A stretch of DNA of 64,000 nucleotides from Nitrospiraceae bacterium (GCA_050246315.1 JBFWWG010000002.1:524811-588810), one strand, 5' to 3'; positions 37,589 through 64,000 are shown, numbered from the stretch's first letter. The notes: generated by a model from the sequence alone, not told the origin. A program made the numbers and translations.

Positions 37589-37618
37589 TTGACAAATATA
37601 CTCCACTTTCCATACACT
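37589..37618 (+). promoter_or_regulatory. sigma70 promoter for yezD-porin-modA-lipoprotein
   Basis: TTGACA-18 nt-TACACT. Confidence 0.6.
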
Positions 37619-37704
37619 CCAGCATCTGCATCAATCATTCATCATCCTTCAGATCAAGGTGCTCATCGGATGAAGGCATACGGTGAGACACCCGGAGGAA
37701 CGCC

Positions 37705-37899
37705 ATGGGAAACCGTGAATCCGTTGCTCAGTGGAACGACCAAGCGATTGAGGATGTCATCCTGCGAAGCCTGCTAGGGATTCGCTACGGTTCGATCGAG
37801 ATCATCGTGCACGACTCGCGGATCGTCCAGATTGAACGCAAAGAAAAAGTACGATTCGACATGGCTCAGGCACGGGCCGACTCGAAAAGCGTGGGCTGA
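37705..37899 (+). CDS. YezD/OscA family (DUF2292) small protein
   Basis: IRYGSIEIIVHDSRIVQIERKEKVR signature; GGAGG RBS. Confidence 0.88.
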   Translation: MGNRESVAQWNDQAIEDVILRSLLGIRYGSIEIIVHDSRIVQIERKEKVRFDMAQARADSKSVG

Positions 37900-37914
37900 A
37901 ACCGTATCGGCCCA

Positions 37915-38005
37915 GAAGGCTGCCGGCCGTCCAGCACATACTGGAGGCCCAGCCTTCCTCTAATTAGCAGCCGACCAGGCGAGCTGACCGGACAACCGGA
38001 GGTTC
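37915..38005 (+). other. Tandem related stem-loops between yezD and the porin gene (candidate cis-regulatory RNA)
   Basis: GAAGGCTG-CC-GGCC-G-TCCAG-CACATA-CTGGA-GGCC-CAGCCTTC and CTGA-CCGG-ACAA-CCGG-AGG. Confidence 0.5.
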
Positions 38006-38029
38006 CCATGTCACGAAGGAGCTTCAGAC

Positions 38030-39670
38030 ATGAGAACGTCCGGTGTGCGCCCTTTCATCATTCTTATCCTTCCAGCAATCTTGGCCCTGACTCCACCCGC
38101 AGAGGCTGTCGAAGAGGGGCAACTCGTCAAGAAGGAGGGGAAGTGGGAATACTATTCGGGAGAAGACCCCGGTCTGAAATATCTCTACCTCAAGGGGATC
38201 ATCACTCAGGACGAATACGAAAAGGGTCTCAAGGTGCTCGAGACCAAAGAGCACGCGTCGAAACCCAATTTCAATATCGACGTCAATAACGGGCTGAACA
38301 TCCGTGTCGGGTCGAAATTCCTGCTGAAAATACGGCTCCTCACTCAAGTACGCTACACCTACAGCGATTACAATGAAGGCTGGGGCACAATCGGGGATTC
38401 ACGCAATCCAGAAATTCTCGGTGGCCAGGTGGAATATCGAGCCGTCAGGAAACAGAGCGATTCCAGTCAGTTCTCGGTTCCCCGCGCCCACCTGCAATTC
38501 ATGGGATATGCGTTCGATCCGGATTTCCGTTACAACATCTCCTGGGCGTTCGATCAAACCACCTGGGATCAGGAGGGGAGCAGTGGACGGGCCGGCCTCC
38601 TGGACGCTTATATTTCCTCCTGGCACATCCCCTGGGCAACCGTCCAGATCGGCCAGCAGCGTGTCTGGTTCAATCGCGCCTTGATCAGCTCCATGGCCAC
38701 CTCCACCTTTGCGGACAATCTGATCGTCCAAAATGCGTTTGCAGCCAACCTGCAAGGCAGCCGCGACATCGGGATCAGCGTGCTGACCGACGAAGACCGA
38801 TACAAGTTCAACTATGCCGTCGGGATCTGGGGAGGAGTCGGGGCCAACCTTGCACGAGAGGGCACAGCCGTCAGTCAAAACGTCCTCCCTCCAACCGGGA
38901 CACCGGGAGCGCCCCCAGCCACGATCACTCGCACCTACAACTACGGCACCCGCTTCATGACCGGTGAGCTCATGTATACCGCCCGGCTGCTCTACAAGAT
39001 CTCCGGCAATCCAGGGTATGGCCAAGGAGACATTCTCAACTCACGGATACCCCAGGCCGCCATCGCGTTCGGCTATGCGTATAACCCGGCTCAGAACTAT
39101 CTGAGTTCGACTCGTTCGGACATTGTCCAGCGCGCCTACCGCCAGCGCGTCGCCAAAGCCTATAACGGCCGACTCCTCGCCGGGGGCATTTACGATTTCC
39201 AAACGTATGATGTGGACTTTATTGCGAAGTACCAAGGCTGGTCGCTCCAGGCCGAAGGCTACTACCGCCACCAGCGCGTGCGCAGTACCGACAGCGGAAC
39301 CCAACCATACGATCTCAACACGATCCCGTCTCCCCAAATTCTTGGTCCACCGGTGAACCTGGGCCAGGCCTGGGGCTATTACGTGCAGGTTGGGAAATAT
39401 ATCATTCCCCGCAAACTTGAACTCGCCGTACGATATGGATTCATGGACCCGTCAACCGAGCAGACTCACGACCTGCTCAAGGAATTCGGCGCCGCCATCA
39501 ACTACAGTTTCGACGGGACCTACAACAACCGACTCGTTATCGACTATTCCAACATCACGATGGGAAGCGGCGGGCGGGCCCCTGATCGCTTTCCCTTTGA
39601 GAGCGAACCGGGCTTCGGACGCGATCTGATCGAAAATCGGATCAACGTGCAGTACCAATTCTATTTCTGA
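38030..39670 (+). CDS. Outer-membrane porin, OprO/OprP-like (copy A)
   Basis: Signal peptide; GIITQDEYE helical segment; alternating beta-strands; C-terminal VQYQFYF. Confidence 0.8.
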   Translation: MRTSGVRPFIILILPAILALTPPAEAVEEGQLVKKEGKWEYYSGEDPGLKYLYLKGIITQDEYEKGLKVLETKEHASKPNFNIDVNNGLNIRVGSKFLLKIRLLTQVRYTYSDYNEGWGTIGDSRNPEILGGQVEYRAVRKQSDSSQFSVPRAHLQFMGYAFDPDFRYNISWAFDQTTWDQEGSSGRAGLLDAYISSWHIPWATVQIGQQRVWFNRALISSMATSTFADNLIVQNAFAANLQGSRDIGISVLTDEDRYKFNYAVGIWGGVGANLAREGTAVSQNVLPPTGTPGAPPATITRTYNYGTRFMTGELMYTARLLYKISGNPGYGQGDILNSRIPQAAIAFGYAYNPAQNYLSSTRSDIVQRAYRQRVAKAYNGRLLAGGIYDFQTYDVDFIAKYQGWSLQAEGYYRHQRVRSTDSGTQPYDLNTIPSPQILGPPVNLGQAWGYYVQVGKYIIPRKLELAVRYGFMDPSTEQTHDLLKEFGAAINYSFDGTYNNRLVIDYSNITMGSGGRAPDRFPFESEPGFGRDLIENRINVQYQFYF

Positions 39671-39710: not shown

Positions 39711-40535
39711 ATGAGACGACTCCGTCTGCATTTTGGAACGTACCTGCTCTTCAGCCTGGTCGCCATCCTGATCCAGGTCACATCTCTGCCCGCCCAACAA
39801 CCGGAGCCCCTGACCATTGCGGCCGCAAACAGTCTTCGCGACGCATTCCGCGAGGTGCTTCCCCTCTTCGAATCACGACATCCGGATATCAGGGTGCGCG
39901 TGATCTACGGCCCTTCCCAGACACTCCGGAAGCAAATCGAGGAGGGGGCGCCGGTCGATGTGTTCCTTCCGTCGCTGTTCGAGGAGATCGAAGATCTGGA
40001 GAAGAAGAGCTTGCTGATCAACGGAACCAAATATGTCTATGGAGGGACCTCCTTGGTATTGGTGACCAATGCGGCGTTGCCGGCTCCCGTCGACTCGATC
40101 CAGGCCCTCAAGACCGTCTCGATACGGCGCTTGGCCGTCGGTGATCCCAAAACGTCCTCCGTCGGGAAAGTGGCGGCACAATTTCTCAAATATAGTCGGC
40201 TGGATGAACGGCTTCGGTCGCACTACGTGTATGGCGAACACTCCCGAGCGGTTCTCGACCTGGTAGCTCAAGGAGAGGCGGAGTTGGGGATTGTGTATCG
40301 AACCGATGCGGTCTCCAACACAAAAGTGCGGATCGTCGATACGGCCCCTCAGGACTCTCACACACCCATCCACTATGGAGTCGCGGTGGTCTGGTCCCAC
40401 AGGAATCTGGCCTGGGGCCAAGGATTCATTGAGTTCCTCTCGAAGGCTGAGGTCCAGGCCTCGTTGCAGAAGTACGGATTTGATCGTGTCTCGACCGACA
40501 CCGGCCTTGGCCAACGGAAGGAGGTCAAACCATGA
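39711..40535 (+). CDS. modA: ModA-family oxyanion-binding protein (paralog 1)
   Basis: LTIAAANSL, YGPSQTL, GAPVDVF, GIVYRTDA, LQKYGF motifs. Confidence 0.85.
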   Translation: MRRLRLHFGTYLLFSLVAILIQVTSLPAQQPEPLTIAAANSLRDAFREVLPLFESRHPDIRVRVIYGPSQTLRKQIEEGAPVDVFLPSLFEEIEDLEKKSLLINGTKYVYGGTSLVLVTNAALPAPVDSIQALKTVSIRRLAVGDPKTSSVGKVAAQFLKYSRLDERLRSHYVYGEHSRAVLDLVAQGEAELGIVYRTDAVSNTKVRIVDTAPQDSHTPIHYGVAVVWSHRNLAWGQGFIEFLSKAEVQASLQKYGFDRVSTDTGLGQRKEVKP

Positions 40536-41266
40536 ACCACATCAACAAGCGGAGGATGGAGAGCCGAGCCTGGCCGCTCCCAGCGGCTGCAGTCATGATC
40601 GGCCTGGCAGTCCTCCCCGGTTGCGCAGGTCAGCCTCCCACCAAGACTACCTCTGTGTTGGAAGCAGGGCGGAACGTGGTCCAGCTTGAGGCCGATCCGG
40701 AGTCCACCTCCAATTCTCATCCGGCCACCCTCACGTCCGCGGAGGTCGGAACGTTGCTGCGAGGAGTGCGCGCCTGGGAACGGCGAAACCTTTTCCATCG
40801 ACTCTACGCCGGGGAAGCTCCAAGGACCAGAGCCTTTCGGGACAATGAGATCGCCCTGTTGGCGCCCGCACTCTCCAAGGCCTTGGCGCAGGCCGATCCC
40901 TCCGAGCGTATCTATTTCCACCTGAGCCACGCCACCGAAGCCGGTGAGGAGGAGACGACCACCGGATGGATTGCTGTCCGAGAGCCGATTCTCTATTTGG
41001 CAGTGAGCGAGGTGCACGACCGACACGGCCCGGTTCCGGACATCAGCAAATACGATCGCCAGATGCCGAACGTTCCGGAGGTTTCCGCCGCATTCGACGT
41101 GATCTTCGAACCGGAGGAGTATCTCCAGGCAGTTGAGAGCAAGGGGCGCTTCTGGGCGACGGATCAACGCGAAGAGTTGCAAATCCGTTATCGAGAAGCA
41201 TTGGGGTCCATGCCGACACATCCCGGCCTACCAATGAACTCAGCGCCGACCCCGTCTCTACCTTGA
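40532..41266 (+). CDS. Uncharacterised lipoprotein (copy A)
   Basis: Lipobox LPGC; paralogous to 56209..56910. Confidence 0.8.
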   Translation: MNHINKRRMESRAWPLPAAAVMIGLAVLPGCAGQPPTKTTSVLEAGRNVVQLEADPESTSNSHPATLTSAEVGTLLRGVRAWERRNLFHRLYAGEAPRTRAFRDNEIALLAPALSKALAQADPSERIYFHLSHATEAGEEETTTGWIAVREPILYLAVSEVHDRHGPVPDISKYDRQMPNVPEVSAAFDVIFEPEEYLQAVESKGRFWATDQREELQIRYREALGSMPTHPGLPMNSAPTPSLP

Positions 41267-41615: not shown

Positions 41616-43241
41616 TCAAGGAATGGCAGGGCTGGTCAAATCGTTATGCACGCTGTTGTTGCTTGCGTTCACGTCAATGCCCCCGGCAGGAGGTGGTTTA
41701 TCGAGATCGACGAATTGAAACGTCCCGAAGGGTTGGATCTGGTCGTCGGACGGCAATTGATCTCGGTTCCAGCCTCCGCCGAGCGCACGGATCAGTGCGA
41801 CCGAGGATGTCAGGAGTTCGGCCTTGATCTGGACAGACTCGATGCGTGCCGTGAGCGTTTGGACCTGCGCATAGATCAGTTCGAGGCTGGAGGCCAGCCC
41901 ACCTTGATAGAGCTCCATAGTCAGATTTTGAGCCTTGAAGTTGGCTCCGACGGAGGCGTCTTGCCGGTTGGCCGCGACGGTCAGCCGGTTGGTCAAGCTC
42001 AAATTGTTCTCGACCTCGCGAAACGCATTGAGCACCGTCGAACGGTAGAGGTCTTCCGTCTCACGATAGGCAGACCAGGCCTGCTGCAATTGGGCGCGGC
42101 GATACCCGCCTTGGAAAACCGGCAGCGCAACAGTGGCGCCATAGGACCAAAAACTATTGGCCAGCGAGATCAAATTGATACCGACATCCTCGAATCCACC
42201 GCCGATCCGAAACCTCACATCGGGAAAAAAGGCGGCACGGGCGATGCCGATAGCGCGGTTCGCCTGCGCCATCCGGCGTTCCATAGCGGCAACGTCGGGC
42301 CGACGTTCCAGCAAGGTGGATGGGATCGTCTGCGGAACTGAAAAATTCACGACCCGTAGCTCATCGACCGGCTTGATGGTGAAACTGGCCGGGGCCATGT
42401 TGACGAGAATGGCGATCGCCTGTTCCGCCACCTGACGTTGTCCTTGAACGCGGGCTAACTGCGTCTCGGTACTGAACAGCAGGGATTCGACGCGAGCGAC
42501 GTCAAGCGCCGACGCGATCGCGCCGGCAAATTGGGCCTTGACGAGATCAAGCGATTGTCGATACAGCGTGATCGACTGAGAATAGATGGCGATTTGCGCG
42601 TCGTAGCCGCGCAGGGTGAAATAGTTCGCCCCGATTTCCGCCTGAAGGCTGAGGCGCGCAAGCCCCCAGTCGGCGGCGCGTTCTTCGGCACGGTAGGTTT
42701 CCACTCGCGTCGCATTGCGGATCGCCGACCAGAAGTCGGGTTCCCACGCTGCCAATCCGCCTAGGAGCACGGTCGATTGTCTACTATCGATATCGGGCGG
42801 GCGAAACAGCGCATTATCGGATAGGCGGTTGTTTGAAGCGTCAAAACCCACACCAACCTGCGGGATACGGCGCGACCTGGCCTTCATCATCATATCCCGA
42901 GCCTGTATGAACCGCTCGGCGGCGGCCTGTAGATCCGGATTGGCCACCATCGCCTGATCAATGAGCCTGTTCAGAACCGGATCGTCGTAGAGTTGCCACC
43001 AATCCGGTCGCAATTCGTCATCCGACGGCTTGGCTTCGACGAAGGGACTCGCGCCTCGCCATGAGGCAGGGACGACATATTGAGGCGGTTCATAGGAAGG
43101 CGCGAGGTCGGCATGCGGCAGCCAGTCGCTTTGGCATGCGGAGAGAGTGAGCATCAAGAGGAGCAGGCCGCTGCGCCGCTGAAAGGCACGAACCATAGAC
43201 GGCACGTCTGAGTTCACACGCGGTCGCAGGCCGATGATCAT
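41616..43241 (-). CDS. RND efflux outer-membrane factor lipoprotein (NodT/OprM-like)
   Basis: Lipobox LSAC; WW.LYDDPVL, NPDL, LLERRPDV, ALGGGW motifs. Confidence 0.93.
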   Translation of the reverse strand: MIIGLRPRVNSDVPSMVRAFQRRSGLLLLMLTLSACQSDWLPHADLAPSYEPPQYVVPASWRGASPFVEAKPSDDELRPDWWQLYDDPVLNRLIDQAMVANPDLQAAAERFIQARDMMMKARSRRIPQVGVGFDASNNRLSDNALFRPPDIDSRQSTVLLGGLAAWEPDFWSAIRNATRVETYRAEERAADWGLARLSLQAEIGANYFTLRGYDAQIAIYSQSITLYRQSLDLVKAQFAGAIASALDVARVESLLFSTETQLARVQGQRQVAEQAIAILVNMAPASFTIKPVDELRVVNFSVPQTIPSTLLERRPDVAAMERRMAQANRAIGIARAAFFPDVRFRIGGGFEDVGINLISLANSFWSYGATVALPVFQGGYRRAQLQQAWSAYRETEDLYRSTVLNAFREVENNLSLTNRLTVAANRQDASVGANFKAQNLTMELYQGGLASSLELIYAQVQTLTARIESVQIKAELLTSSVALIRALGGGWNRDQLPSDDQIQPFGTFQFVDLDKPPPAGGIDVNASNNSVHNDLTSPAIP

Positions 43242-44509
43242 GGCGAAACCGACGAGGAATGTGCCGCTTGTTCCTTAGGCTCTGATTGTTGCGGTGACTC
43301 CGACTGATCAGGCGGTCTCAATTTGTCCTTTGACGCCACGGTTTCGGTATTGACGAGGTCGTAACCCGCTGCCGGCGTCACAAGGCGCACCTTGTCGCCT
43401 TCAAGCAACGCAGCGCTGGGATTGTTGATGATCCGGTCGCTTGCCGAAAGCCCCTCCGCGACTTCGACAAATTGATCCATGAGTTTGCTCACCGTGATGG
43501 ATTTCAAGTGAACTCTGTCGTCCTCCGTCACCACGGCCACTTGCGTGCCGTGCTCCTGGAACACCAACGCGGTGGACGGCATCGTGAATGCTTGTCGATC
43601 GACCGGAGCCGTGAGATGGACCTCGGCGTAAGAACCGGGCCAGAGCGTTCGGTCCTCATTGTCGATCGTAAAGACCGTCACCGCGGTGCGCGTACTTACA
43701 TCGAAGCCTTTTGAGACCGTCAGAAATTTTCCAATGAAATGACGTTTGGGCAATTGCGGCACGGTCACGTCGGCCGTCAGACCCGGCTGGAGGAAAGGCC
43801 CGAACGATTCCGGCACGTTGACGAAAAGACGCAATATGTGGACGTCGGCCACTGTAAACAGGTTGCTTTTCGCATTGGGGGTGTTGAGGTTACCTTCCTT
43901 GCTGACCAAGTCGCCGACATTAATGTTGCGCTGGGTCACCACGCCGTCGAAGGGGGCGACGATTGTTTTGAACCGTATGAACGCTTCGATATTCCTGACC
44001 TTTTGTTCTGCGGCCTTGACCTTCGCCGCTTCGGCTTTCAACTCCTGTTCCTTGACGGTGATCGATTGTTCGGAGACTGCGTGATTGGGACGGAGCGCGA
44101 TCCAGCGCTTGGCGGTCACCTCGGCAAGCTTATACCTGGCACGTTCCGTATCCAAATCTGCCTTGGACTGCGCATATTCGGCGTCGAGATCCGGCGCATT
44201 GATTTCGGCGAGAATGTCGCCTTTCTTCACATGGTCTCCGTAGTCCTTGTACCACATTTTTACATAGCCGGTGACGCGCGCGTACATGGGCGCCTCGTAC
44301 CAGCCCACGATATTGCCGGGAAGCGTAATGGTCTCGGTCGCCGGCACCGGCTTTGCGGAGACGACGGCCACGGTCGAAATGGCCTCTTCGAGTGTCTTCT
44401 CCCGCAGCAGCGCGGCGTCACCTCTACTCTCATAGACCCGATAGCCCACATAGCCCACGCACAACAAGACCGCTGAAAGGACCATGCCTCTTCCACCGAA
44501 TGTCTTCAT
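43238..44509 (-). CDS. RND periplasmic adaptor (MFP)
   Basis: N-terminal TM anchor; ARVTGYV, GDHVKKGD, APFDGVV, PGSY motifs. Confidence 0.93.
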   Translation of the reverse strand: MKTFGGRGMVLSAVLLCVGYVGYRVYESRGDAALLREKTLEEAISTVAVVSAKPVPATETITLPGNIVGWYEAPMYARVTGYVKMWYKDYGDHVKKGDILAEINAPDLDAEYAQSKADLDTERARYKLAEVTAKRWIALRPNHAVSEQSITVKEQELKAEAAKVKAAEQKVRNIEAFIRFKTIVAPFDGVVTQRNINVGDLVSKEGNLNTPNAKSNLFTVADVHILRLFVNVPESFGPFLQPGLTADVTVPQLPKRHFIGKFLTVSKGFDVSTRTAVTVFTIDNEDRTLWPGSYAEVHLTAPVDRQAFTMPSTALVFQEHGTQVAVVTEDDRVHLKSITVSKLMDQFVEVAEGLSASDRIINNPSAALLEGDKVRLVTPAAGYDLVNTETVASKDKLRPPDQSESPQQSEPKEQAAHSSSVSP

Positions 44510-46203
44510 GAGGTCTGTCCCTTTTGCCGGGCCATTCGCCGGCTGTAGATCATCGCGTATACGCAGGGCACGAAAAACAGCGTAAAGATGGTGGCCACGA
44601 GCAAGCCGCCGATGACGGCGCGACCCAACGGCGCATTCTGAGAATAGCCCGTCGCCATGGGAACCATTCCGATAATCATGGCCGAGGCGGTCATGAGTAC
44701 CGGGCGGAAGCGGGTCTTCCCGGCTTCGACCGCGGCCAAGAGCGCGTCGCCGTGCTCATGGAGCCGCTCACGAGCATACGACACAACGAGGATCGAATTG
44801 GCGGTCCCCGTGCCCATGGTCATGATGGCCCCCGTCAGTGCGGGCTCCGACAGACGCGTATGAGTCAGGAACAACGCCCACGCGATGCCCGCCAAGGCAC
44901 CGGGCAACGCCGTAATGATGATGAAGGGGTCGAGCCAGGATTGGAAATTGACGACGATCAGCAGATACACCAGCACGACCGCGGCGAGTAGGCCGAAGAT
45001 CAGCTCGAAATAGGCGTCGTGCATCAGCGACGCCTGGCCATGGATTTCGACCTCGGCGCTGCGCGGCTTCTCGTGCTCCATGTTGTGGACAATCTTCTCG
45101 ACATCCGTCAGCACACCGCCGAGATCGCGCCCTTCGGCGGAGACATAGACGTTGAACAGCGGCATGATGTTCCCGTGCGTGATCACGCCGGGCGTGCCCT
45201 CCGCCGACAACTCGGCCAAATTGCCGAGGAGTTGCACATCACGATCGTTCGAAGAACTACCCGCGGCATCGACCGGGACCGTTTTGATACTATTGACGCT
45301 GTTGATCTGCGACTGCGGCGTATACACATTGATCAGATACGACATGCCCGTACTCGGATCGAGCCAGTAAATTTGATCGACCTGTTGACTCCCGGCGGTC
45401 GTCATGAGCAGGTTGTCGGCCATGTTCTTCAGGGTCCGGTTGACTCCGAGTCCGAACGTGCGGTCGCCTTCCACCATCAGGGTCGGCGTGCGCATCGTCT
45501 GCTGAATCACCACATCCGCAGCGCCGGGAATCTCGCGAAACTTCCCAACTAATTTACGGGCAAACTCATAGTTGGGGTACATGTCCGGGCCGTTGACCTG
45601 CACGTCGATCGGCGCAGGGGCGCCGAAGTTGAGAATTTTTGCGGTCAGATCGGAAGGCTGGAACGTGAACTCCGTTCCTGGATAGCGTTCTCTCAAGCCC
45701 TTGCGGAGAATGCGCCGATAGTCCCACACCGGCGATTTCTCATCCTTCAACAGGATCGTCAGATCACAATCCTGGGACCCGATCGTCGGCGTCGGAATGA
45801 AGGCGAGGTTGTGCGGCCCGACCGGCAGACCGCAATTGCTGACAATGTTTTCGACCTGGCCCGGCAGCAACTGCTCGATGCTGTTGGAGACGAGCGTGGC
45901 AATGCGCCCCGACACTTCGATGCGCGTCCCAAGCGGCGCCCGCATATGCATCTGAATGACTCCGGACCTGATCTCGGGAAAGTAATCGCGTCCCAAGAAG
46001 AAAAAGAGGGACAGGGAAGCCACCGCGATGGCCAGCGAGATCGTGACGAAGGTCTTACGACGGGCGATCACCCGTTCGAGCAGCCTGCCATAGCCCTCGC
46101 GAAACCGCTCGAAGCGGCGCTCGAACCCCCTCTGAAAGCGGACGAACGGATTCCCCGACGGCTTGACGCCGTCATGTCCATCCTGGTTATGCGGCTGCGA
46201 CAT
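44506..46203 (-). CDS. RND permease, C-terminal half (TM7-12)
   Basis: NFQSWLDPFII, ANSILVV, RFRPVLMT, PLGRAVIGGL motifs. Confidence 0.85.
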   Translation of the reverse strand: MSQPHNQDGHDGVKPSGNPFVRFQRGFERRFERFREGYGRLLERVIARRKTFVTISLAIAVASLSLFFFLGRDYFPEIRSGVIQMHMRAPLGTRIEVSGRIATLVSNSIEQLLPGQVENIVSNCGLPVGPHNLAFIPTPTIGSQDCDLTILLKDEKSPVWDYRRILRKGLRERYPGTEFTFQPSDLTAKILNFGAPAPIDVQVNGPDMYPNYEFARKLVGKFREIPGAADVVIQQTMRTPTLMVEGDRTFGLGVNRTLKNMADNLLMTTAGSQQVDQIYWLDPSTGMSYLINVYTPQSQINSVNSIKTVPVDAAGSSSNDRDVQLLGNLAELSAEGTPGVITHGNIMPLFNVYVSAEGRDLGGVLTDVEKIVHNMEHEKPRSAEVEIHGQASLMHDAYFELIFGLLAAVVLVYLLIVVNFQSWLDPFIIITALPGALAGIAWALFLTHTRLSEPALTGAIMTMGTGTANSILVVSYARERLHEHGDALLAAVEAGKTRFRPVLMTASAMIIGMVPMATGYSQNAPLGRAVIGGLLVATIFTLFFVPCVYAMIYSRRMARQKGQTS

Positions 46204-51232: not shown

Positions 51233-51675
51233 CTATTCCCTCCTTGGTATTGGTGAATGAGTTGTGAACTGGACGATCCTCTCGCTCCCGCTCCTGATCT
51301 CGACCGCTCATCAATAGGGTCGTGAGCCCCACCTGAGGCAGCCTTGCATTCGAACTGTACGCCCCATTTCCGACCGATGCCTTCGTCCTCGGTGCCTTCC
51401 TTGGTACCGGAAACGCTCGTATACCCGCGCGCCTCCCCTTCTCGAATGACACGATAGCCGGCCGGGCATTTCCGCATCATGAGCGCATCGGCCTGCCTGC
51501 GGTAGGGAGACATCAGGTGCCCCCCGCGGTCCTCCTTGTAGGAATAGGAGACCAATCCTCCCGACGGCGTTTCCCGCACCATCTGAACCGCGTCTGAGCA
51601 GCCGGTAGCCGCGCCCCAGAGCCAGAGCAGCACCAGACCCTGACAGACCGGCGCGCTCGTCACCCGCCCGTTCAT
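51229..51675 (-). CDS. Small uncharacterised lipoprotein
   Basis: Lipobox ATGC; KCPAGYRVIREGE...W.VQFEC Cys pair. Confidence 0.7.
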   Translation of the reverse strand: MNGRVTSAPVCQGLVLLWLWGAATGCSDAVQMVRETPSGGLVSYSYKEDRGGHLMSPYRRQADALMMRKCPAGYRVIREGEARGYTSVSGTKEGTEDEGIGRKWGVQFECKAASGGAHDPIDERSRSGAGARGSSSSQLIHQYQGGNR

Positions 51676-56208: not shown

Positions 56209-56910
56209 TTATTTGGTGGAACCAGGAGAGGACCTGGTCGCGCCCTGTCCTGCTTCCCCTGATTGGAGGAACTTGCGAAGCTCCACCGCTCGGATTTCTT
56301 TGGGGTCGGTGACCCAGAAACGTCCCGGGTCGAAATACAGGATGTAGTCCTTCGCCGGTGGAGGCGGCGTGGGATAGTTGCGGTAGTAGAGATCGGCCTT
56401 CCTGACCGGGACTTGGGTGTGATACTGCTCGACCGTGAGGTACAGGTACGGTTCCCTGACCGCTACCCAACCGGACAGCAGATCTCTTCCATACTCCGGA
56501 TTGTTGCCGGGGCCGAGCAGGGCGAAGTGCGCCCGTTCATCGGGTCCGATCCGTTGGAACGCTTCCACGAGATACGGAGCAACCAGCTCGATCTCGTCCT
56601 CTCGAAAGACCGGTATCGGAGGGGCCTCTTCGGTGAACCACCGCAGCGGCAGACGTTGCTGCACGCGCAAGGAAAATCCCTTCAACAACGCGGCGACTTC
56701 GTCCGACGTCAAGGTGACCGGGTGGGTGAAGGACGGTTCATCGATGGTTCGCTGGGCCGTCACCACGACTCGCGGCCCCTCGTAGATCGTCTGCGTGGTA
56801 TACGGAACCCGCGCACAGCCGGCCGCCGCGACGGCGATCATGGCCGCCGCCATCGCGAAGCGCGTCCTCGATCGAGGCATCTCATCCTGCGCAACCGTTC
56901 TCCTCTTCAT
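56209..56910 (-). CDS. Uncharacterised lipoprotein (copy B)
   Basis: Lipobox AAGC; HPVTLT..EV..LL.G, F...EI, GW.AVREP.LYL motifs shared with 40532..41266. Confidence 0.8.
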   Translation of the reverse strand: MKRRTVAQDEMPRSRTRFAMAAAMIAVAAAGCARVPYTTQTIYEGPRVVVTAQRTIDEPSFTHPVTLTSDEVAALLKGFSLRVQQRLPLRWFTEEAPPIPVFREDEIELVAPYLVEAFQRIGPDERAHFALLGPGNNPEYGRDLLSGWVAVREPYLYLTVEQYHTQVPVRKADLYYRNYPTPPPPAKDYILYFDPGRFWVTDPKEIRAVELRKFLQSGEAGQGATRSSPGSTK

Positions 56911-57004
56911 CGGTCCCCCTCATCTGTTCGAATGGTTGTCGTATTTAATAAAATAAAAGACTGTTATACTTGACACCCTAAGCACAAAAAATACGAGGCT
57001 CCGA

Positions 57005-57859
57005 TTAACGAACGACGGGCCGGGCGTAATTGGCTCCCGGCACGCCATAGCCCGCGCTCCGAACGATGCGTTGCGCCTCGGGCGTTTGAATGAACGCCAA
57101 AAAATCTTCGCAGAGCGATCGATTCGGGCAGTACCGCTCCATCGCCATCGAGTGCACCGTCGGCTCATACCCACGCTCTGCCACCGCCACGATCCGAACC
57201 CGTTCCCGTTCCCTCACCGCCTCATGCTCGAAAATGATGCCCAGGTCGGCCTCCCCGCCGAGGACATGGTCAAGGACCCCTCGAGAGTCGGTCGCGACGT
57301 CCAGCCGGCCTCGCAACTTCCCCTTCAGATCGAACTCTTGCAACACCTCCTCCGTCTGTCTCCCCAGATTGGTCCGTTGCGGTTCCGCAATCGCGAGCCT
57401 GAGCCCTTCGCTTACCCGTCCGAGTTCTTCAAACGATTCCGGAGCATCCGCCACCGCTTCAGGCGCGACCAAGACCAGACGTTCCTTGGCATAGGCCCGT
57501 TTGGTGCCGGGCAGGACGTAGTACTTCATCTCCAGTCGGGTGATCAGCTCGTCGCCGCCTGGCGCCACCAGATGAATCGGGCCCCTCCCGATGAAAAATT
57601 CTCCGGTCATGCTGTTCTCCATCCCGGCAATCGTCCGCCTGAGATCCAACCCATCATCGAAGTACAACATGACTTTGACATGCTGATGTTTGGCTTCATA
57701 GGCCTCGGCAAGCGCCTTCAACGGCACGCCCAGGCTCGGCGACCCGGCGATCACGAGCACCTCTCGGGATTGGCCGGCATGGGAGGGCACGGTAAGGCCC
57801 CCTACGGCGGCCATGGCGCACAGGTACAGCAACGGACGCATCATCCGTATGATTCTCAT
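57005..57859 (-). CDS. Highly divergent ModA-like substrate-binding protein (paralog 4)
   Basis: Signal peptide; AGSPSL, YAKERLVLV, LAIAEP..T.LG, GEADLGII, FLAFIQTPEAQRIV..GY motifs. Confidence 0.75.
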   Translation of the reverse strand: MRIIRMMRPLLYLCAMAAVGGLTVPSHAGQSREVLVIAGSPSLGVPLKALAEAYEAKHQHVKVMLYFDDGLDLRRTIAGMENSMTGEFFIGRGPIHLVAPGGDELITRLEMKYYVLPGTKRAYAKERLVLVAPEAVADAPESFEELGRVSEGLRLAIAEPQRTNLGRQTEEVLQEFDLKGKLRGRLDVATDSRGVLDHVLGGEADLGIIFEHEAVRERERVRIVAVAERGYEPTVHSMAMERYCPNRSLCEDFLAFIQTPEAQRIVRSAGYGVPGANYARPVVR

Positions 57860-57912
57860 GACCTCTCCTCTATCAATCCATCCTCTGGTCGTCGTGCGCG
57901 AACCATTCGTCG

Positions 57913-59109
57913 TTAGGCTGAGCGCTTGTCCAACAGCTCCCGCACCATCCCGGTCTCTCTCGTATCGTAGCCGCCCAACGCCTCCACTTCCGTCCGGAAC
58001 GGACGGCTCACGATCGTATCCAGAAACTGCTGCAGCGCCGGATGGGATTTCAACAGGACGGCCGAGACCACCAGATCATAGCGCTCCGCTTGCAGCGCGA
58101 GAAAATCCAAGCCGAATGCCGCAGCGGCCGCGCCCACTCCCACACCCACGTCCGCCATGCCGTCCGCGACGGTGCGGGCGACGGCAAAATGCGACGGCAC
58201 GACATGGCGGTATCCCCTCACCTGCGCCGGCTTCACACCGGCATCGGCCAAGCGCTGATCCAACAACAACCTGGCGCCGGCGCCTTCTTCCCGATTCACG
58301 AGCGTGACATCTCGCCGCCCCAGGTCGCCGGCTTCCCTGATCCCACGGGGGTTGCCTCGCCTCACCAACCATCCCTGTTCCCATGCCGCAAACGTGACGA
58401 CGGTATACTGTTCTGGATCAAGATGCCGCCGCAGATAGGGCAGATTCGACTCTCCGGTCTTGCGGTCCACCACATGAACGCCGGCAACATGGACCTCGGA
58501 TCGCTTTAGCGCCTCCACGGCCGCCGCGCTGCCGGCCATCCACCCGACGACCGACGCCCCTCCTTGGCGACGCCTGAGATACTCGCCGGCCAGGTAAATG
58601 GCGGGATCGCAACCAGCCACCGCAATCTCCTCACGGATCGACGCCCATTCCCGCAGCAACCGGACACGGACCTTGGTGCATCCGTGCTTGGATTTCCCCG
58701 AAGGCAGACCCGTGACGAGTCCATCGGCCGGAACGGTATAGGTCAGCACCTCCCCCAGATGCGTCACCGGCCTGACGATCACGCGGGACCCGACTTGCAC
58801 CACCTTCACGCGGTGGCGCAGCTCACTGCCCGCCGCGGCTCGCTCCACCCCGACCAATTCGCCCTCGATCTCTTCGCCGCTTGAAATCAAATTGAAGAGG
58901 TCTTCGATACGGCAGTGCAGCACGCCGGCCAGTCTCAGCGCAACCGCAGTGGTGGGCAGGTATTGATTGGCTTCGATCGCGCAGACCGCCTGTCTCGTGA
59001 TGCCGGAGCGCGCGGCCAATTCGGTTTGCGAGAACCCGCGCCCCATCCGAACCTGGCGCAGGCGATTCTCGATATTCTCAGCCGGCTCGGCTTTGCTCTT
59101 GTCGCTCAT
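57913..59109 (-). CDS. XRE-HTH regulator with C-terminal PBP (molybdate-sensing-type) domain
   Basis: NRLRQVR..FSQTELA...RQAV.AIE...P; AGCDPA, GSAAA..AL, HVAGVH, VNREEGAGAR, ERYDLV motifs. Confidence 0.88.
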   Translation of the reverse strand: MSDKSKAEPAENIENRLRQVRMGRGFSQTELAARSGITRQAVCAIEANQYLPTTAVALRLAGVLHCRIEDLFNLISSGEEIEGELVGVERAAAGSELRHRVKVVQVGSRVIVRPVTHLGEVLTYTVPADGLVTGLPSGKSKHGCTKVRVRLLREWASIREEIAVAGCDPAIYLAGEYLRRRQGGASVVGWMAGSAAAVEALKRSEVHVAGVHVVDRKTGESNLPYLRRHLDPEQYTVVTFAAWEQGWLVRRGNPRGIREAGDLGRRDVTLVNREEGAGARLLLDQRLADAGVKPAQVRGYRHVVPSHFAVARTVADGMADVGVGVGAAAAAFGLDFLALQAERYDLVVSAVLLKSHPALQQFLDTIVSRPFRTEVEALGGYDTRETGMVRELLDKRSA

Positions 59110-59287
59110 GGGGCGCCACATGTAACAAATAGAAGCGGTGATGTCAAGTATGCTGTCACCTCCTCGCACCGTCCAGACGTGGCCGAAAGCCGTTTCCGGC
59201 AAGGACACCGAATACCCTAATATCCATCAGGAGTACGGAGGTAGGCATAGCACGATCAATACCCATGTATCGCTCGACAGGGGTGGC

Positions 59288-59397: not shown

Positions 59398-60237
59398 TTA
59401 CGGTCCAGTCAGTTCAAGATAGTCCGGCCAGTGGTCACCCGTCCCTTTTGGATGCATGGATGGATGCATGGACGCCGGCACGCAGTAGGCCAGGCCGTCT
59501 TCTCTGATCACGACCTCAAGCTCAATTCGATAGAGGCGTCGCAGCACATCTTTGGTCATCACGTGGAGTGGATGGCCTTGGGCGATCGCCGTTCCGCCGG
59601 ACAACAGTACGACCTTATCCGATACCTGAAACGCATGATCAGGAAAATGGGTCGATTTGATGACCGTATAGCCTTCGGCGGCCAAGTTGCGAATATGCTC
59701 CAAGAGGCGGAGCTGATTGCCATAGTCCAGACCGCTGACCGGCTCATCCATGATCAATAACCGGGCGCCTTGAGCCAATGCCCGGGCAATCAAGACCAAC
59801 TGCCGTTCTCCGCCGCTGATGGCCGTATACGGACGCTGCGCCAAATGCTGGATGCCAAGCCGGCCGAGCGCCGACATGACAATGGAACGGTCCCGATTCG
59901 AATACCCTCCATAGAAGGATTGATGGGCCAGACGCCCCAGCATCACCACGTCCCGAACCACATAGGGAAATGATAGGGAGTGCGCCTGAGGAACATAGGC
60001 CATTTTGCGCGCCATCTCACTCCGAGACAGTTGCGCAATCGGCTGCTCGTCCAACAAGACGCGGCCTGCCGCAGGAGCCAGGAGCCCCAGCAGGATTTTG
60101 AGCAGCGAACTTTTCCCACTTCCGTTCGGCCCCAACAAAGCAAGCACCTCTCCCTTCTCAACTACGAGGGAGACCTCCTGCAGGACCGTGCGGTCGCCAT
60201 ATTTGAACGCAATCCTCTCCGCTTCCATGAGACTCAT
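59398..60237 (-). CDS. Type II ABC importer ATPase (FecE/MolC-like)
   Basis: GPNGSGKS, ISGGERQ, IMDEP, STH motifs. Confidence 0.92.
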   Translation of the reverse strand: MSLMEAERIAFKYGDRTVLQEVSLVVEKGEVLALLGPNGSGKSSLLKILLGLLAPAAGRVLLDEQPIAQLSRSEMARKMAYVPQAHSLSFPYVVRDVVMLGRLAHQSFYGGYSNRDRSIVMSALGRLGIQHLAQRPYTAISGGERQLVLIARALAQGARLLIMDEPVSGLDYGNQLRLLEHIRNLAAEGYTVIKSTHFPDHAFQVSDKVVLLSGGTAIAQGHPLHVMTKDVLRRLYRIELEVVIREDGLAYCVPASMHPSMHPKGTGDHWPDYLELTGP

Positions 60238-61307
60238 GAGAGCCATCCGCTGCGCACGTGACGAAGCACCGCAACGAACACGGGAATGCCGATCAGTTCC
60301 GTCGCCACGCCGATCGGCACCTCCACCGCAAAGAGACTCCTCGCGAGATCATCAACGCAGAGGAGAAACAAGGCGCCGATCACCGCACTGGCCGGCAGGA
60401 CCCGTTGATTGTTGGCTCCGACCAGCAGCCGAGCGATATGGGGGATGACCAGACCGACCCACACGATCATTCCGGCAAGCGTCACCGTTAACGCGCTGAC
60501 CAGTGTGGCGCAGGCGATCACGGAGAGCCGGATTCGCGTCACATTGACGCCGAGCGTATGAGCTTCCTCATCGCCCATGCTCAGAGCATTGAGATACTTG
60601 GCCGAAGCCATGAGGGCGACGGTGCCCAGGATCATGGGCCCGGCCAACAGCAAGACGGTGCGCAGGTCCACGAGTGAGAGGCGTCCCATAAGCCAGAATA
60701 CGATGGCCGGCAACTGATCGTACGGATCCGCTAACGCCTTCACGATGGACAGCAGGGCCGTGAACAGACCGCCGGTAATGATGCCGCCCAAGACCAACAT
60801 CAACAGGGAATCCGCTCCATAGAATCTGGCAATCAACAACGTAATCCCCACCGCCGCCAGTCCCATGAGAAACGCCCCGAGCTGAACCATAACCCACGAA
60901 TCTCCGACCAGCATCGCCGCTGCCGCCCCGAACGAGGCGCCGGCCAAGACCCCAAGCAGTCCGGGCGACACCAACGGGTTGCGGAACATGGCTTGAAAAG
61001 CGGCCCCGGACACGGAGAGCGCCGCACCGATCAACATGGCCGCAAAGACGCGAGGAAGCCGGAGATCGAACACCACGGTTTTCAGTTCGTCGTAACGTTC
61101 CGGAGCAAGGCCCGCGACGCCAAACGTCGTAGTCATGATGAGGTGGTACAAGTCGGACCATGGCACGGGATAGCGCCCGATCGCCAAAGACACGACGCCC
61201 ATCCCGATCAACACGGGCACGGACACCCAGACGGACATGATCCACCGTATGAACGGCGCCTGATCGATCGACCGCATGTCCATCGCAATATCGGTCTGTC
61301 CCATCAT
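60234..61307 (-). CDS. Type II ABC importer permease (FecCD family, MolB-like)
   Basis: SLAIGRY, LRLPR, FRNPLV, SLLMLVL, LPAIVFWLMG, WVGLVIPH motifs. Confidence 0.92.
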   Translation of the reverse strand: MMGQTDIAMDMRSIDQAPFIRWIMSVWVSVPVLIGMGVVSLAIGRYPVPWSDLYHLIMTTTFGVAGLAPERYDELKTVVFDLRLPRVFAAMLIGAALSVSGAAFQAMFRNPLVSPGLLGVLAGASFGAAAAMLVGDSWVMVQLGAFLMGLAAVGITLLIARFYGADSLLMLVLGGIITGGLFTALLSIVKALADPYDQLPAIVFWLMGRLSLVDLRTVLLLAGPMILGTVALMASAKYLNALSMGDEEAHTLGVNVTRIRLSVIACATLVSALTVTLAGMIVWVGLVIPHIARLLVGANNQRVLPASAVIGALFLLCVDDLARSLFAVEVPIGVATELIGIPVFVAVLRHVRSGWLS

Positions 61308-62356
61308 GGAATTCCTTTCAGCATCTCCTCCGCCTCCTCCTCCGACAATTGATAACGGAAGAACTGGACGTAGAACCGCTTCATTGCGCCGGTCAGATCC
61401 ACGTCACCGACCCGACCCGGATGGAACAGCGTCGCAGCCCACAACACTGTCAGCGGCTGCTCGGCCGTTCGGTATCCCCACGGATGAGCGCCGGCGGGAA
61501 TCGCATGGACCCGTCGCTGGCGGACCGCCTTCACGTGCCGGAATCGCGGCTCCTGATAGACTTGCTCGATCTCAACCGGAGCGCTCACGATCAGAATATC
61601 GGGATTCCACGCCAACACCTGCTCGGGCGACACCGGCAGACTCTCGGTCAGGCGGCCGTCGGACGTCACGCTCACTCCCCCACCTTCCGTGATCCACCAT
61701 TCTCCGATCAGATGCGGCACACTCATCATTCTCAGGCTTAAGAACAAGACGCGAGGCCGATCGGAGCTTGGCAGACTCCCCACGGCCGATTGAACGACCC
61801 CCAATGTCTCGCCCAGAAACTCCAGGTATCTTCTGGCCTCATCACGCCGCTCCAGCGCCTCCCCCAGCAACACAATGGTGCGCTCCATGTCGTCACGGTT
61901 CCTCCACGAGAGGCACAGGACGCGTAAGCCCTTGTTCGTCAACGCGTCGGCCAGGGCACGATCCATGGTCAATACGACATCCGGGCGGAGTGCGATCAAT
62001 GCTTCCATATTGGGTTCGTGGCCGGGTCCCTGGACGACGGGGAGCGAGGAGAGTGCCGGAGCGATCCGTCGCTGATACTGGTGGCGTCGGGTCTGCGCAA
62101 AATAGGGAAGCCCGTTCACAATGGCATCGCCTCTTCCCAACGCGAAGACAAAGCTGTTCAAGACCGGAACAGGCCCGAGCGTGGCGACTCGCGTAATGCC
62201 GGCCGGCAACTCCACCGTCCGACCCGCCAGATCGACGAACGTCCGCGCTGCGCCGCTCCCTTGGCCCAATGCCGGTGAGGAACGCGCACCGACCAAGAGC
62301 AGACACCACAGCAGCGAGCATGCAAGGATCGCTGCAACCCGACATGACCGATTCAT
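61304..62356 (-). CDS. Type II ABC importer periplasmic binding protein
   Basis: Signal peptide; FVDLAGRTV, NMEALIALRPD, EQVLAWNPD, VKAV...RV motifs; start MNRSC overlaps the tonB stop. Confidence 0.9.
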   Translation of the reverse strand: MNRSCRVAAILACSLLWCLLLVGARSSPALGQGSGAARTFVDLAGRTVELPAGITRVATLGPVPVLNSFVFALGRGDAIVNGLPYFAQTRRHQYQRRIAPALSSLPVVQGPGHEPNMEALIALRPDVVLTMDRALADALTNKGLRVLCLSWRNRDDMERTIVLLGEALERRDEARRYLEFLGETLGVVQSAVGSLPSSDRPRVLFLSLRMMSVPHLIGEWWITEGGGVSVTSDGRLTESLPVSPEQVLAWNPDILIVSAPVEIEQVYQEPRFRHVKAVRQRRVHAIPAGAHPWGYRTAEQPLTVLWAATLFHPGRVGDVDLTGAMKRFYVQFFRYQLSEEEAEEMLKGIP

Positions 62357-63507
62357 TGAATTCCATAGCTGATCGGAATCTTCACCGTAATGGACTCCTT
62401 CCCGAGGTCGTAGGTCAATGAAACCGGCGAGAGCCTGCCCAGCAGTTTCAAGGCTTCGTCGTCGAGGATGTCGTGTCCCGAACTGTGGAGGACCTCCAAA
62501 TCGGTCAACGTCCCGTCGTTCCACATCACCGCCCTGACCACGACTCGCCCTTCCAGTTTACGATCCAACGCAAGCTGCGGATACCGCTTCATCCGTTCGA
62601 TGTGGCTTTGCAACAGCTCTTTCAACCACCCGTAGTGGGCCTGCGAGCCAGGGGCTGCTTTCGCCGTAGGCCGGCTCTCGGGTGCGTCGCGCCGGCTCCA
62701 TTGAGGCCTTGGGACAGATCCGTGCGCAGCCACCCGCACCTCCACCTCTTGAGTGTGACGATTGACGGATGCCGCCGGGCGTTCCACCAGGCCGTCTTCG
62801 AATGCCCGTTGCTGCGTGGGGACCTTGTGCACCACCTCACCACGCTCGACCGGTTTGGATAGATTGGATATAGGAGTCGAAGCTGACACGGTTGGCGAAT
62901 GGGGCGCATCCGAGACGGGATCGCTAAGAACCGCGCTTGCCGACGACACAGCAGTCGGGCTCACGGACTCAGGAACGCTGCGCACTTCCGTTGCCACTCC
63001 CGACGGTTCGGGCAGAACGGCAGCAACCTCTCGCTCCATGATGCCCTCCTCCGCACGTTGGACCTCATGCTGAATGACTTCAGCGCTACGGCTGACGCTT
63101 CGTTGTTCAACCGGCATGCTGGCGTTCAACGGCGGCGCAACGGACGCTGTGGCCTCAACCGCCGCTGCGTCTCGACGCTCAACCGTTCGATCCTGAACAG
63201 GCTGCTTCTCAACCGTCTGCTCCATGGCCCGACGATCCTGAATCGGTCGTTCCTGAACCGTCTGCGCCTTTGACGGCCGCTCCTGAACCGGTTGTCGAGG
63301 TGGCGGCTCGGAAGGAGGCGCTTCCGGAGGTGATACGGTGGATCGCTGGGATTGGTGCATCACCACTTCCCATCGAAACGGTTCGTCCGGTAAGGGCCTG
63401 GGCTGGAACTGCGCCATCAAGAACGCTCCGGCCACACAAAGGGCATGCAGAATGACGGACACGCTCCAACCCTGTGCGTGGTAGGACGGTTTCACCGACT
63501 GATCCAC
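62353..63507 (-). CDS. tonB: Energy transducer TonB
   Basis: N-terminal TM with SxxxH; long P/Q/E/S linker; C-terminal YP..A....EGRV, SSGH.ILD.EAL. Confidence 0.88.
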   Translation of the reverse strand: MDQSVKPSYHAQGWSVSVILHALCVAGAFLMAQFQPRPLPDEPFRWEVVMHQSQRSTVSPPEAPPSEPPPRQPVQERPSKAQTVQERPIQDRRAMEQTVEKQPVQDRTVERRDAAAVEATASVAPPLNASMPVEQRSVSRSAEVIQHEVQRAEEGIMEREVAAVLPEPSGVATEVRSVPESVSPTAVSSASAVLSDPVSDAPHSPTVSASTPISNLSKPVERGEVVHKVPTQQRAFEDGLVERPAASVNRHTQEVEVRVAAHGSVPRPQWSRRDAPESRPTAKAAPGSQAHYGWLKELLQSHIERMKRYPQLALDRKLEGRVVVRAVMWNDGTLTDLEVLHSSGHDILDDEALKLLGRLSPVSLTYDLGKESITVKIPISYGIQ

Positions 63508-63615
63508 TCATTCCCTCGCCCGATTTGGCTATGTCACGCCCCTCCTGAAATCCGATCAGGCAGAGACCTCGATGCCATATATAATATATTCTCGTCAACT
63601 ATAATGGACACTGGG

Positions 63616-64000
63616 TCAAAACTTTAAGCCGATCGAGCCGGCCACTGTGAAGGGAGCGCCAGGAAAATAGGCGGCGTTGCCGCCGAGCCGATCTTCAAAG
63701 GCATTGATCACGCCGACGTACCTCTTGTCGAACAGATTCAAGAACTGTACGCTCAGGAACCCGTCCTTGACGCCTGGAATAGCTCGAAACAGCTTCGGAT
63801 TGGTATAGGTCAGGAACAAGTCCACGACGGTATAGGGGGAGACTCGCTCCGTATTGGTCACGTTCCCGAACCGGGCGCCGATGTAGCGGACGACCGGGGC
63901 AATCTCCAAGCCATACAGTTTGTAACTGATTCCTCCCTTGAGCATGAACTCAGGAAAATCCGGGGTCGCGTGCCCCTTGGTTTGGACGATCGCTCCCGAG
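63616..64000 (-). CDS. TonB-dependent receptor, C-terminal part (5' end outside the window)
   Basis: YTVVDL, NLFDKRY, PGAPFT motifs; ends ...GLKF. Confidence 0.9.
   Translation of the reverse strand, partial: SGAIVQTKGHATPDFPEFMLKGGISYKLYGLEIAPVVRYIGARFGNVTNTERVSPYTVVDLFLTYTNPKLFRAIPGVKDGFLSVQFLNLFDKRYVGVINAFEDRLGGNAAYFPGAPFTVAGSIGLKF

Follow-up and report, generated by a model that had tools for sequence, protein, structure and literature searches.

Paired molybdenum and sulfur oxyanion units in a Nitrospiraceae genome, each with a candidate outer-membrane trio of porin, lipoprotein and ModA-like protein

The window analysed here is a 64,000-nucleotide stretch from a Nitrospiraceae bacterium (GCA_050246315.1 JBFWWG010000002.1:524811-588810), whose last ~ 26 kb gather genes for porins, lipoproteins and ModA-family proteins. 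Judged by the gene maps of relatives, this region is a mosaic of four units: a molybdenum (Mo) operon, a left unit headed by an oscA-like gene, a cassette of ModA2 and an RND pump, and an accessory cassette with a TonB-dependent receptor (TBDR) and a type II ATP-binding cassette (ABC) importer. The first two each hold a copy of the same trio, composed of an OprP-fold porin, a lipoprotein and a ModA-like protein. From the genomic evidence, we consider this trio to be an outer-membrane module for oxyanion capture and hand-off, used once for Mo and once for sulfur, and we place the probability of this reading at about 0.55.

The trio can be recognized in both arms because porin1 and porin2 are paralogous (37% identity over 567 columns), as are lipo1 and lipo3 (36%), so that both arms combine related porins and lipoproteins with a ModA-like protein. 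The region contains both porins and all four ModA paralogues that a search of the 4.39-Mb assembly returned, and with no other paralogues of either kind present, the clustering is not a matter of chance. Co-occurrence was followed in a census of 70 genomes of the family (47 with a porin match, 20 of the 25 listed without one, and three genus-mates), a non-random sample whose related members are not independent. Close orthologues of porin2 and ModA4 share the same 41 of these 70 genomes, while porin1 and ModA1 share the same 37 of the 67 searched for both, one further porin1 being cut by a contig end. Neither ModA4 nor ModA1 was seen without its own porin type among the 70.

The trio is found in 40 of 45 amoA-negative genomes versus 1 of 25 amoA-positive ones, with a diverged trio in one more of the latter (G100). 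At the 15 regulator loci fetched from the family (14 amoA-positive plus G165), one AlgE-type porin replaces the trio in 11, the trio is kept in two and two have no intact porin; the AlgE-type porin also takes its place at two of three sister-family loci. The operon that lacks the trio usually consists of regulator, AlgE-type porin, modA, modB and modC. The sulfur-arm trio is swapped for another OprP-type porin in three genomes (G080, G104, G119), and one genome (G012) holds a third trio. Across a phylum sample, the porin class occurs in 40 of 64 family genomes, in the single sister-family genome and in none of 235 others. Named porin2 homologues belong to Nitrospiraceae, including Nitrospira tepida (86%), and also appear in N. 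defluvii and N. moscoviensis records.

As a separate observation, the AlgE-type replacement porins (L048:7865-9430, L051:8107-9651, L054, L055, L056, L059, L060) have only a stretch around residues 9-66 in common with porin1 and porin2. This short N-terminal segment suggests a periplasmic docking peptide that may have been retained on an unrelated barrel.

Within the Mo operon, the gene order is regulator, ModA-like protein, lipoprotein, OprP-fold porin, modA, then in some cases a lipoprotein and mop, followed by modB and modC. We counted synteny in the best 80 of 284 confirmed GTDB porin2 loci, using only loci with enough flank (at least 2 kb upstream, n = 74; at least 2.5 kb downstream, n = 66). 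Collinearity with porin2 is strict: lipo3 and ModA4 lie upstream in 74/74, the regulator in 64/64, and ModA3 downstream in 66/66. Further downstream in those 66 loci come modB (63), lipo2 (55) and mop (36), the count for mop being limited by flank length. The multi-TOBE homologue follows porin2 in 14 of the 66 and the sulfite-oxidase-fold gene in one. The regulator itself is present in 68 of the 70 family genomes. The modC product reaches 266.6 bits against the TIGR02142 cut-off of 285 and 288.9 against the WtpC cut-off of 440; it carries a TOBE domain and its gene adjoins modB. ModA3 has nearly invariant site motifs, kept in 69-76 of 76 orthologues. The inner-membrane importer appears to be an ordinary ModABC; the front end and the regulator are not ordinary.

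The trio proteins themselves can offer a greater level of detail. The porin2 model is a barrel with a predicted local distance difference test score (pLDDT) of 72, whose top Foldseek matches are OprP (2o4v, E 1.7e-15) and OprO (4rjw). It bears two N-terminal helices with a weak SHOCT score, and its sequence counts 37 Arg and 16 Lys. Porin1 has no Pfam match and is assigned to the OprP type by homology to porin2 only. Lipobox-like cysteines were found in three open reading frames (ORFs). Lipo3 yields a confident model (pLDDT 88, predicted template-modelling score 0.84) with no Foldseek match at E ≤ 0.001 and a best VIA Z of 4.1 among 48,161 chains, which does not prove a new fold. No Pfam model covers the lipo1/lipo3 family, and an atlas search led to unnamed Nitrospirota clusters only. 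Elsewhere in the host genome, a lipo2 paralogue lies beside a lipo1/lipo3 paralogue (G000:C2:61005-62242), which hints at a partnership between the two lipoprotein families.

The ModA-like members differ markedly in their anion sites. In 76 ModA4 orthologues, the positions assigned by alignment to Ser12, Ser39 and Tyr170 (E. coli numbering) hold Ser in 59, Ser in 11 and Tyr in 14, respectively. At the same time, 41 other positions are at least 95% conserved, including a Cys-Pro-x-Arg motif. Pairwise ratios of nonsynonymous to synonymous substitution (dN/dS) are 0.18 for ModA4 and 0.17 for ModA3, within a range of 0.06-0.24 over nine genes tested; ModA4 is maintained by purifying selection. It is probably not a tight anion binder, as far as its residues tell. 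ModA1 and ModA2, both aligned to solved ModA, retain the Ser/Ser/Tyr contacts (ModA1 in 9/9 rows, ModA2 in the rows covering the sites) that belong to the five-contact oxyanion site described in passages of PMC7604516. A complex prediction for ModA4 with lipo3 scored 0.00 in two runs, for which no controls were folded, and speaks neither for nor against binding.

In the left arm, the sulfur assignment comes from the neighbourhood in relatives and from a promoter box. Behind the arm follow Sbp and CysT in two genomes (G086, G141), SsuA-family importers in three (G012, G004, G100) and a family 2A encapsulin with cysteine desulfurase in one (G010), while G014, G021 and G019 show no gene of sulfur-importer type there. 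A sulfur-type box, distinct from the Mo operator, precedes 16 of 18 left arms of relatives, and its top match in the host genome is the sir-cysH-cysD-cysN operon (27.4 bits vs 20.9 for the next), the first gene of which encodes a sulfite-reductase-like protein. Because of these importers and this box, the left arm is linked to sulfur, and by its gene context it is a sulfur unit. The box may resemble that of CymR, a likeness that a search did not confirm; at the head of the cys operon stands a gene that seems Rrf2-like on visual inspection, with no NCBIfam match at 1e-30. The OscA-like protein passes the DUF2292 cut-off and stays below that of NF033785 (45.8 vs 85).

Two further features of this arm were noted. 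Between oscA and porin1, a conserved element, CTGACCGGA-x-x-ACCGGA (window 37984-38002), is found in 7/7 genomes with oscA and has no Rfam match at the gathering threshold. An exported protein of 350-370 residues without annotation often heads or replaces the sulfur arm (L020:18052-19098, L088:881-1990).

Taken together, the region would comprise two oxyanion-uptake units placed back to back, both beginning with a trio of their own, and two additional cassettes. Each trio would most likely form one outer-membrane gateway: the porin would let a tetrahedral oxyanion in, the lipoprotein would assemble or tether the gateway, and the ModA-like protein behind the pore would deliver it to the binding protein proper of the inner-membrane importer. 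On the Mo side, hand-off would go to ModA3 and then ModBC; on the sulfur side, to Sbp and then CysTWA, or to SsuA and then SsuBC. ModA4, with two ligand side chains mostly lost, would fit a low-affinity relay or a structural adaptor, and cytoplasmic molybdate may be buffered by the Mop and TOBE proteins. What the analysis shows directly is synteny and gene content, patterns of co-occurrence and replacement, selection, motifs and the residues of the binding sites; physical interaction, ligands, direction of regulation and order of hand-off in this scheme are inferred.

Several observations weigh against this reading. In three genomes (G108, G162, G169), a diverged porin2 and its lipoprotein occur as a pair that lacks the ModA-like gene, hence the ModA-like partner is not obligatory for the porin class. 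With 1435 clusters at E ≤ 0.001, the family of the lipoprotein is large, and other members adjoin tatC/ppiA or slp-like genes, so the lipoprotein is not specific to oxyanions. Co-occurrence among kin can also reflect shared deletions of adjacent genes. In the host, the oscA box has decayed (3.4 bits) and sbp-cysTWA is located on contig C3 rather than in the left arm, and the site of ModA1 is of molybdate type despite its place in a sulfur unit. Some of these points feed another, though rather unlikely, explanation, in which an ordinary porin alone admits the anion for an ABC importer, the lipoprotein is a generic factor for assembly or stabilization in the outer membrane, and the extra ModA-like proteins take no part in a physical hand-off but act independently in the periplasm, as buffers or as decoys, with ModA1 keeping toxic molybdate away from the sulfate importer. 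That comammox genomes manage with one AlgE-type porin agrees with it, as do the porin-lipoprotein pairs that lack a ModA-like gene and the lipoprotein paralogues in unrelated contexts. It does not account for ModA4 and ModA1 never occurring without their own porin types in the 70 genomes; a buffer, moreover, should keep its site, whereas ModA4 has mostly lost the site and kept other surfaces.

All components listed for the region in a sequence-only reading of this DNA were recovered in the ORF list and family scans of the window, including four ModA-family ORFs that all exceed the TIGR01256 cut-off of 62.5 bits. That reading joined the whole 26 kb, with the left unit, ModA2 and the RND pump, into one layered pathway for scavenging Mo and tungsten and possibly for discriminating between them, which we regard as improbable. 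In the host, sulfur box and importer are indeed gone from the left unit, whose promoter is fourth in the genome on the Mo matrix described below; ModA1 and ModA2 retain full ModA-type sites, and the TBDR cassette has the same candidate operator. Yet the 20.6 bits of the oscA promoter are not decisive, because 17-25 bits are likewise attained by 6 of 18 left-arm promoters in relatives, partly through overlap with the regulator's site. The left unit is linked to sulfur across genera, and by gene context its uncharacterised genes probably respond to sulfur only, a behaviour that the earlier reading itself had named as speaking against it. Layering is supported for porin2, lipo3, ModA4, ModA3, modBC and the regulator, which are strictly collinear, and extends to the TBDR cassette through the shared operator; it fails for the sulfur-linked left unit and the separate ModA2-RND cassette. 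Nothing points to tungsten specifically, as scans of the assembly found no TupB (best match 53 bits vs a cut-off of 320) and no AOR (PF02730); WtpA reaches 26 bits vs 355.

The ModA2-RND cassette is a separate unit. In eight loci of other genera (L073, L074, L075, L077, L078, L079, L081, L082), ModA2 stands head-to-head with the same RND pump (permease identity 72-96%), away from the Mo operon, so that the pair travels together across genera, with an identity that is unusually high; ModA2 adjoins modC only in the host genus. The comparison of neighbourhoods proposed for this region separates a Mo operon collinear in relatives from a cassette located apart from it in eight other genomes. The RND pump is present as predicted, with its permease split into two ORFs. 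An assembly frameshift was rejected as the cause, since the split recurs in three genus-mates and seven other genomes; the split point is constant, the halves are fused in G094, and G127, G147 and G016 carry two copies of the N-terminal half. Next to an efflux pump, a ModA-type protein might serve in the periplasm to sense oxyanions or to chaperone them for export.

The regulator of the Mo operon joins an XRE-type helix-turn-helix (HTH) to a PBP_like domain, and no TIGR00637 (ModE) match was found in the assembly. The candidate operator, ATACTTGAC-N4/5-GTCAAGTAT, lies over the -35 box. Its matrix was trained on regulator promoters of 12 relatives, with the species of the window excluded. In the host genome, the promoter of the crp gene in the TBDR cassette ranks first (29.3 bits; G000:C2:593335, beyond the window) and the regulator's own second (21.8 bits), with oscA fourth (20.6 bits) and tonB 11th (15.5 bits). 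Among 1085 TTGACA windows genome-wide, three reach at least 20 bits, all at the locus. In the 80 porin2 loci, sites of at least 15 bits occur before the regulator gene in 52/61, lipo3 in 19/77, modB in 0/66 and modA3 in 0/78, with shuffle maxima of at least 15 bits in 12, 6, 0 and 2 sets, respectively. The inverted half-site has a spacer of 4 in 19/61 and of 5 in 15/61, with at most two at each of 12 other spacers. Upstream of lipo3, 17/77 loci have the strong half-site in reverse orientation and 6 have it forward, a pattern that a -35 box cannot explain. Caution comes from the -35 hexamer being part of the matrix, from the 12 of 61 shuffle sets that also reach 15 bits, and from the lipo3 site being present upstream in only 19/77. 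On these motif data, the XRE-PBP protein probably takes the place of ModE, acting as repressor of the Mo side via the candidate operator.

The main competing view of the motif has it read by a different protein. A regulator of the CRP/FNR family would make the Mo operon and the TBDR cassette answer to oxygen or nitrogen oxides instead of molybdate, with ModA4 and the cassette handling another ligand. The motif core, TTGAC-N4-GTCAA, resembles FNR/HcpR boxes (the HcpR box reads atTTGAccnnggTCAAat in the section of PMC545781 concerned), the cassette encodes a CRP/FNR protein with four paralogues in the genome, and the class III binding protein lacks equivalents of K221 and R264 of MolA. We find this quite improbable, given that the motif follows the XRE-PBP gene, its extra copies included, in genomes free of the cassette, that the flanking ATA is 84-97% conserved, and that three of the four best genome matches are at the locus, with no global regulon.

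Two side observations concern regulation in relatives. HTH_17 plus TOBE proteins adjoin modC in some of them (L052:16677-17096, L012:14907-15347) and represent a second possible Mo regulator. A second type of locus (L064:10624-19634, L084:1381-11722, L085) has a copy of the regulator, a winged-helix protein, a multi-TOBE protein, a diverged porin2 and a lipoprotein, along with a divergent 1400-residue TPS-domain protein and operator-like sites.

The TBDR cassette extends past the window, where upstream of the TBDR gene it continues with a 148-residue ORF, a luciferase-like monooxygenase and a CRP/FNR regulator. Orthologues of its binding protein were found in 9 of 350 family genomes. In 7/7 cassette genomes with sufficient sequence (near-identical G002 and one 3-kb contig excluded), operator sites scoring 23-34 bits are found upstream of the gene for the monooxygenase, crp, tonB or the TBDR, and the cassette adjoins the left arm or the regulator gene in 5/7. 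It may be an occasional member of the Mo regulon, perhaps for chelated Mo; that the substrate is chelated Mo opened by the monooxygenase has, in our estimate, about one chance in three. The W-G-Y motif of the binding protein, equivalent to G300-Y301 of MolA, is kept in 8/10 rows of its alignment, the MolA ligand residues being K221, R264 and Y301 according to the part of the preprint that covers them (bioRxiv 10.64898/2026.10.15.759412).

The accessory proteins of the Mo operon vary in their support. Of the three TOBE repeats attributed to the so-called triple-TOBE protein, two are supported and the third segment is without TOBE support. The PF00174 domain of the sulfite-oxidase-fold protein is partial and stands behind a signal-like N-terminus; we found no solved relative by sequence, no Cys common to three homologues, and no twin-arginine motif. 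One homologue (L185:14317-14916) ends in a tail that appears PEP-CTERM-like by eye, hinting at surface display.

The assembly (30 contigs, 100% complete by markers) very likely belongs to a nitrite oxidiser, since two contig ends carry the N-terminal 43 residues of an NxrA of Nitrospira type, identical to those of a genus-mate, with the rest of NxrA unassembled. This find ended an early suspicion that nitrite oxidoreductase (NXR) was absent. The genome also encodes NarG, FdhA and a NapA-like enzyme; the NarG-type nitrate reductase (L037, G000:C2:179343-184493) occurs in the host and G002, not among the G001 matches, and would add to the Mo demand of the species, which also has the TBDR cassette. 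The idea that NXR drives possession of the trio is unsupported as such: comammox organisms also oxidise nitrite, yet are mostly without it. At the left end, the region is flanked by a short gene of LexA-like type (window 36516-37058) and by a tRNA (35780-35852) that may have served as an insertion site. An Rfam scan returned only tRNA and no riboswitch at the gathering threshold. Contigs from RNA runs (four sets on 44500-64000) were considered as expression evidence and set aside; we make no claim on expression because in the best set, X1, the depth stays even along an 18-kb contig, as expected of DNA.

Table 1. Features of the ~ 26-kb region, in window coordinates
Feature	Position	Strand	Basis
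oscA promoter with TTGACA	37577..37607	+	20.6 bits on Mo matrix (ambiguous); sulfur-type box degenerate
DUF2292/OscA-like small protein, head of sulfur arm	37705..37899	+	PF10055 E 1.6e-15
Porin1, porin2 paralogue, sulfur-arm trio	38030..39670	+	Homology to porin2; co-occurs with ModA1
ModA1, intact five-contact oxyanion site, sulfur-arm trio	39711..40535	+	TIGR01256 165 bits
Lipo1, lipoprotein, sulfur-arm trio	40532..41266	+	Lipo3 paralogue; no Pfam model
RND outer-membrane factor, NodT type	41616..43241	-	Family scan
RND membrane-fusion protein	43238..44509	-	Family scan
RND permease, C-terminal half	44506..46203	-	Family scan
RND permease, N-terminal half	46187..47686	-	Family scan
ModA2, intact oxyanion site, divergent from RND pump	48243..49058	+	TIGR01256 124 bits
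modC, ATPase with TOBE domain	49200..50285	-	Family scan
modB permease	50270..50944	-	TIGR02141 224.6 bits, cut-off 182.6
Mop/molbindin	51029..51232	-	TIGR00638 passed
Lipo2, small lipoprotein without family	51229..51675	-	Lipobox-like Cys
ModA3, cognate binding protein of ModBC	51740..52543	-	TIGR01256 212 bits
Exported sulfite-oxidase-fold domain, rare accessory	52689..53363	-	PF00174 37.4 bits
Multi-TOBE protein, two repeats supported	53510..54328	-	Repeats within residues ~40-186
Porin2, OprP/OprO-fold barrel, Mo-arm trio	54394..56154	-	PF07396 51.8 bits, cut-off 20.9
Lipo3, lipoprotein, Mo-arm trio	56209..56910	-	Confident model, no solved fold match
Candidate operator upstream of lipo3, strong half-site reversed	56955..56976	-	Motif matrix
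ModA4, degenerate oxyanion site and conserved Cys motif, Mo-arm trio	57005..57859	-	TIGR01256 77 bits
XRE-HTH and PBP_like regulator	57913..59109	-	PF01381 and PF12727
Candidate operator overlapping -35 box of regulator gene	59129..59159	-	Motif matrix
Type II ABC ATPase	59398..60246	-	Family scan
FecCD/BtuC-type permease	60234..61307	-	PF01032
Class III binding protein, distant H. influenzae MolA relative	61304..62356	-	3psa match E 1.4e-15
TonB	62353..63507	-	Family scan
Weaker candidate operator upstream of tonB	63580..63610	-	15.5 bits; corresponding sites of four relatives score 26-28 bits
TBDR 3' end	63616..64000	-	Cut by window edge; complete (762 aa) just beyond

Outer-membrane passage of molybdate is usually ascribed to general porins; a dedicated multi-protein entry for it would be new, and so would the use of the ModA fold as a relay in the form of a pseudo-binding protein. 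Nitrite oxidation needs the Mo enzyme NXR, and because of this dependence the capture of Mo may limit nitrification in soft waters and reactors. The split of the trio between canonical Nitrospira (40/45) and comammox (1/25) is a testable niche difference and, if the proposed function is true, would mean that the two guilds obtain trace metals by strategies whose difference has been hidden. Likewise, the candidate operator makes a widespread, uncharacterised class of regulators directly testable. A fuller account, which we hold only tentatively, would have a three-protein outer-membrane machine (OprP-fold porin, uncharted-fold lipoprotein and pseudo-ModA relay) duplicated and retuned for molybdate and sulfur oxyanions. 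An XRE-PBP molybdate-sensing repressor with its own operator would control a regulon that sometimes recruits a TonB-dependent monooxygenase route for chelated Mo; canonical nitrite oxidisers would have kept the machine, and most comammox lineages would have swapped it for a single AlgE-type porin. Our literature searches found no description of the trio or the operator, although supplements of Nitrospira genome papers may list these genes. The Mo-transport passages of PMC6147048 and PMC11672702 only name ModABC, WtpABC, TupABC and ModE, and passages of an N. marina preprint mention only a molybdenum ABC module.

Among known systems, the closest for the inner membrane is ModABC with Mop of the E. 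coli and Azotobacter type: ModA3, modB, modC with its TOBE domain and mop would make up a standard type I molybdate importer. Unlike those operons, the one described here has the XRE-PBP regulator first, lacks ModE, and includes a porin, lipoproteins and a degenerate second ModA. Its regulator resembles TaoR in joining an HTH to a PBP_like domain (209 bits here) but has HTH_3 (XRE) instead of the HTH_17 given for TaoR in the part of PMC11980592 concerned. The boxes that passages of PMC545781 report for ModE and for the Desulfovibrio integrase-Mop regulators differ from the candidate operator. The TBDR cassette parallels MolABC of Haemophilus influenzae, where a class III binding protein and a BtuCD-type importer likewise exist beside ModABC (passages of PMC4031551). 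In contrast to MolABC, the cassette adds a TBDR, TonB, a monooxygenase and a CRP regulator, its class III protein lacks the K221 and R264 equivalents in the 3psa alignment, and three other class III proteins score better.

For the trio, the nearest precedents are anion-selective barrels. In Pseudomonas, OprP and OprO are coupled to Pst, and the arrangement in which a barrel feeds a binding protein and an ABC importer (PstS-PstCAB) is alike. Porin2, however, counts more residues (545 vs 411), carries helices at its N-terminus and has two dedicated partner genes, and the trio porins adjoin mod or cys/ssu genes with no linkage to phosphate uptake genes. ExtI of Geobacter sulfurreducens is an OprP-like porin beside a partner gene, implicated in selenite and tellurite entry in the passages of PMC5877670 that treat it; porin2 matches the model NF040900 weakly (29.8 bits, cut-off 150). 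Its partner ExtH is rhodanese-like and the cluster, as those passages present it, is a cytochrome conduit, whereas the partner here has no family and importers follow downstream. Finally, the left arm resembles the sulfur-starvation operons oscA-sbp-cysTWA, with a DUF2292 gene first and, in relatives, sbp-cysTWA or ssuABC-like genes behind, but differs from them in the porin, ModA-like and lipoprotein trio that sits between oscA and the importer.

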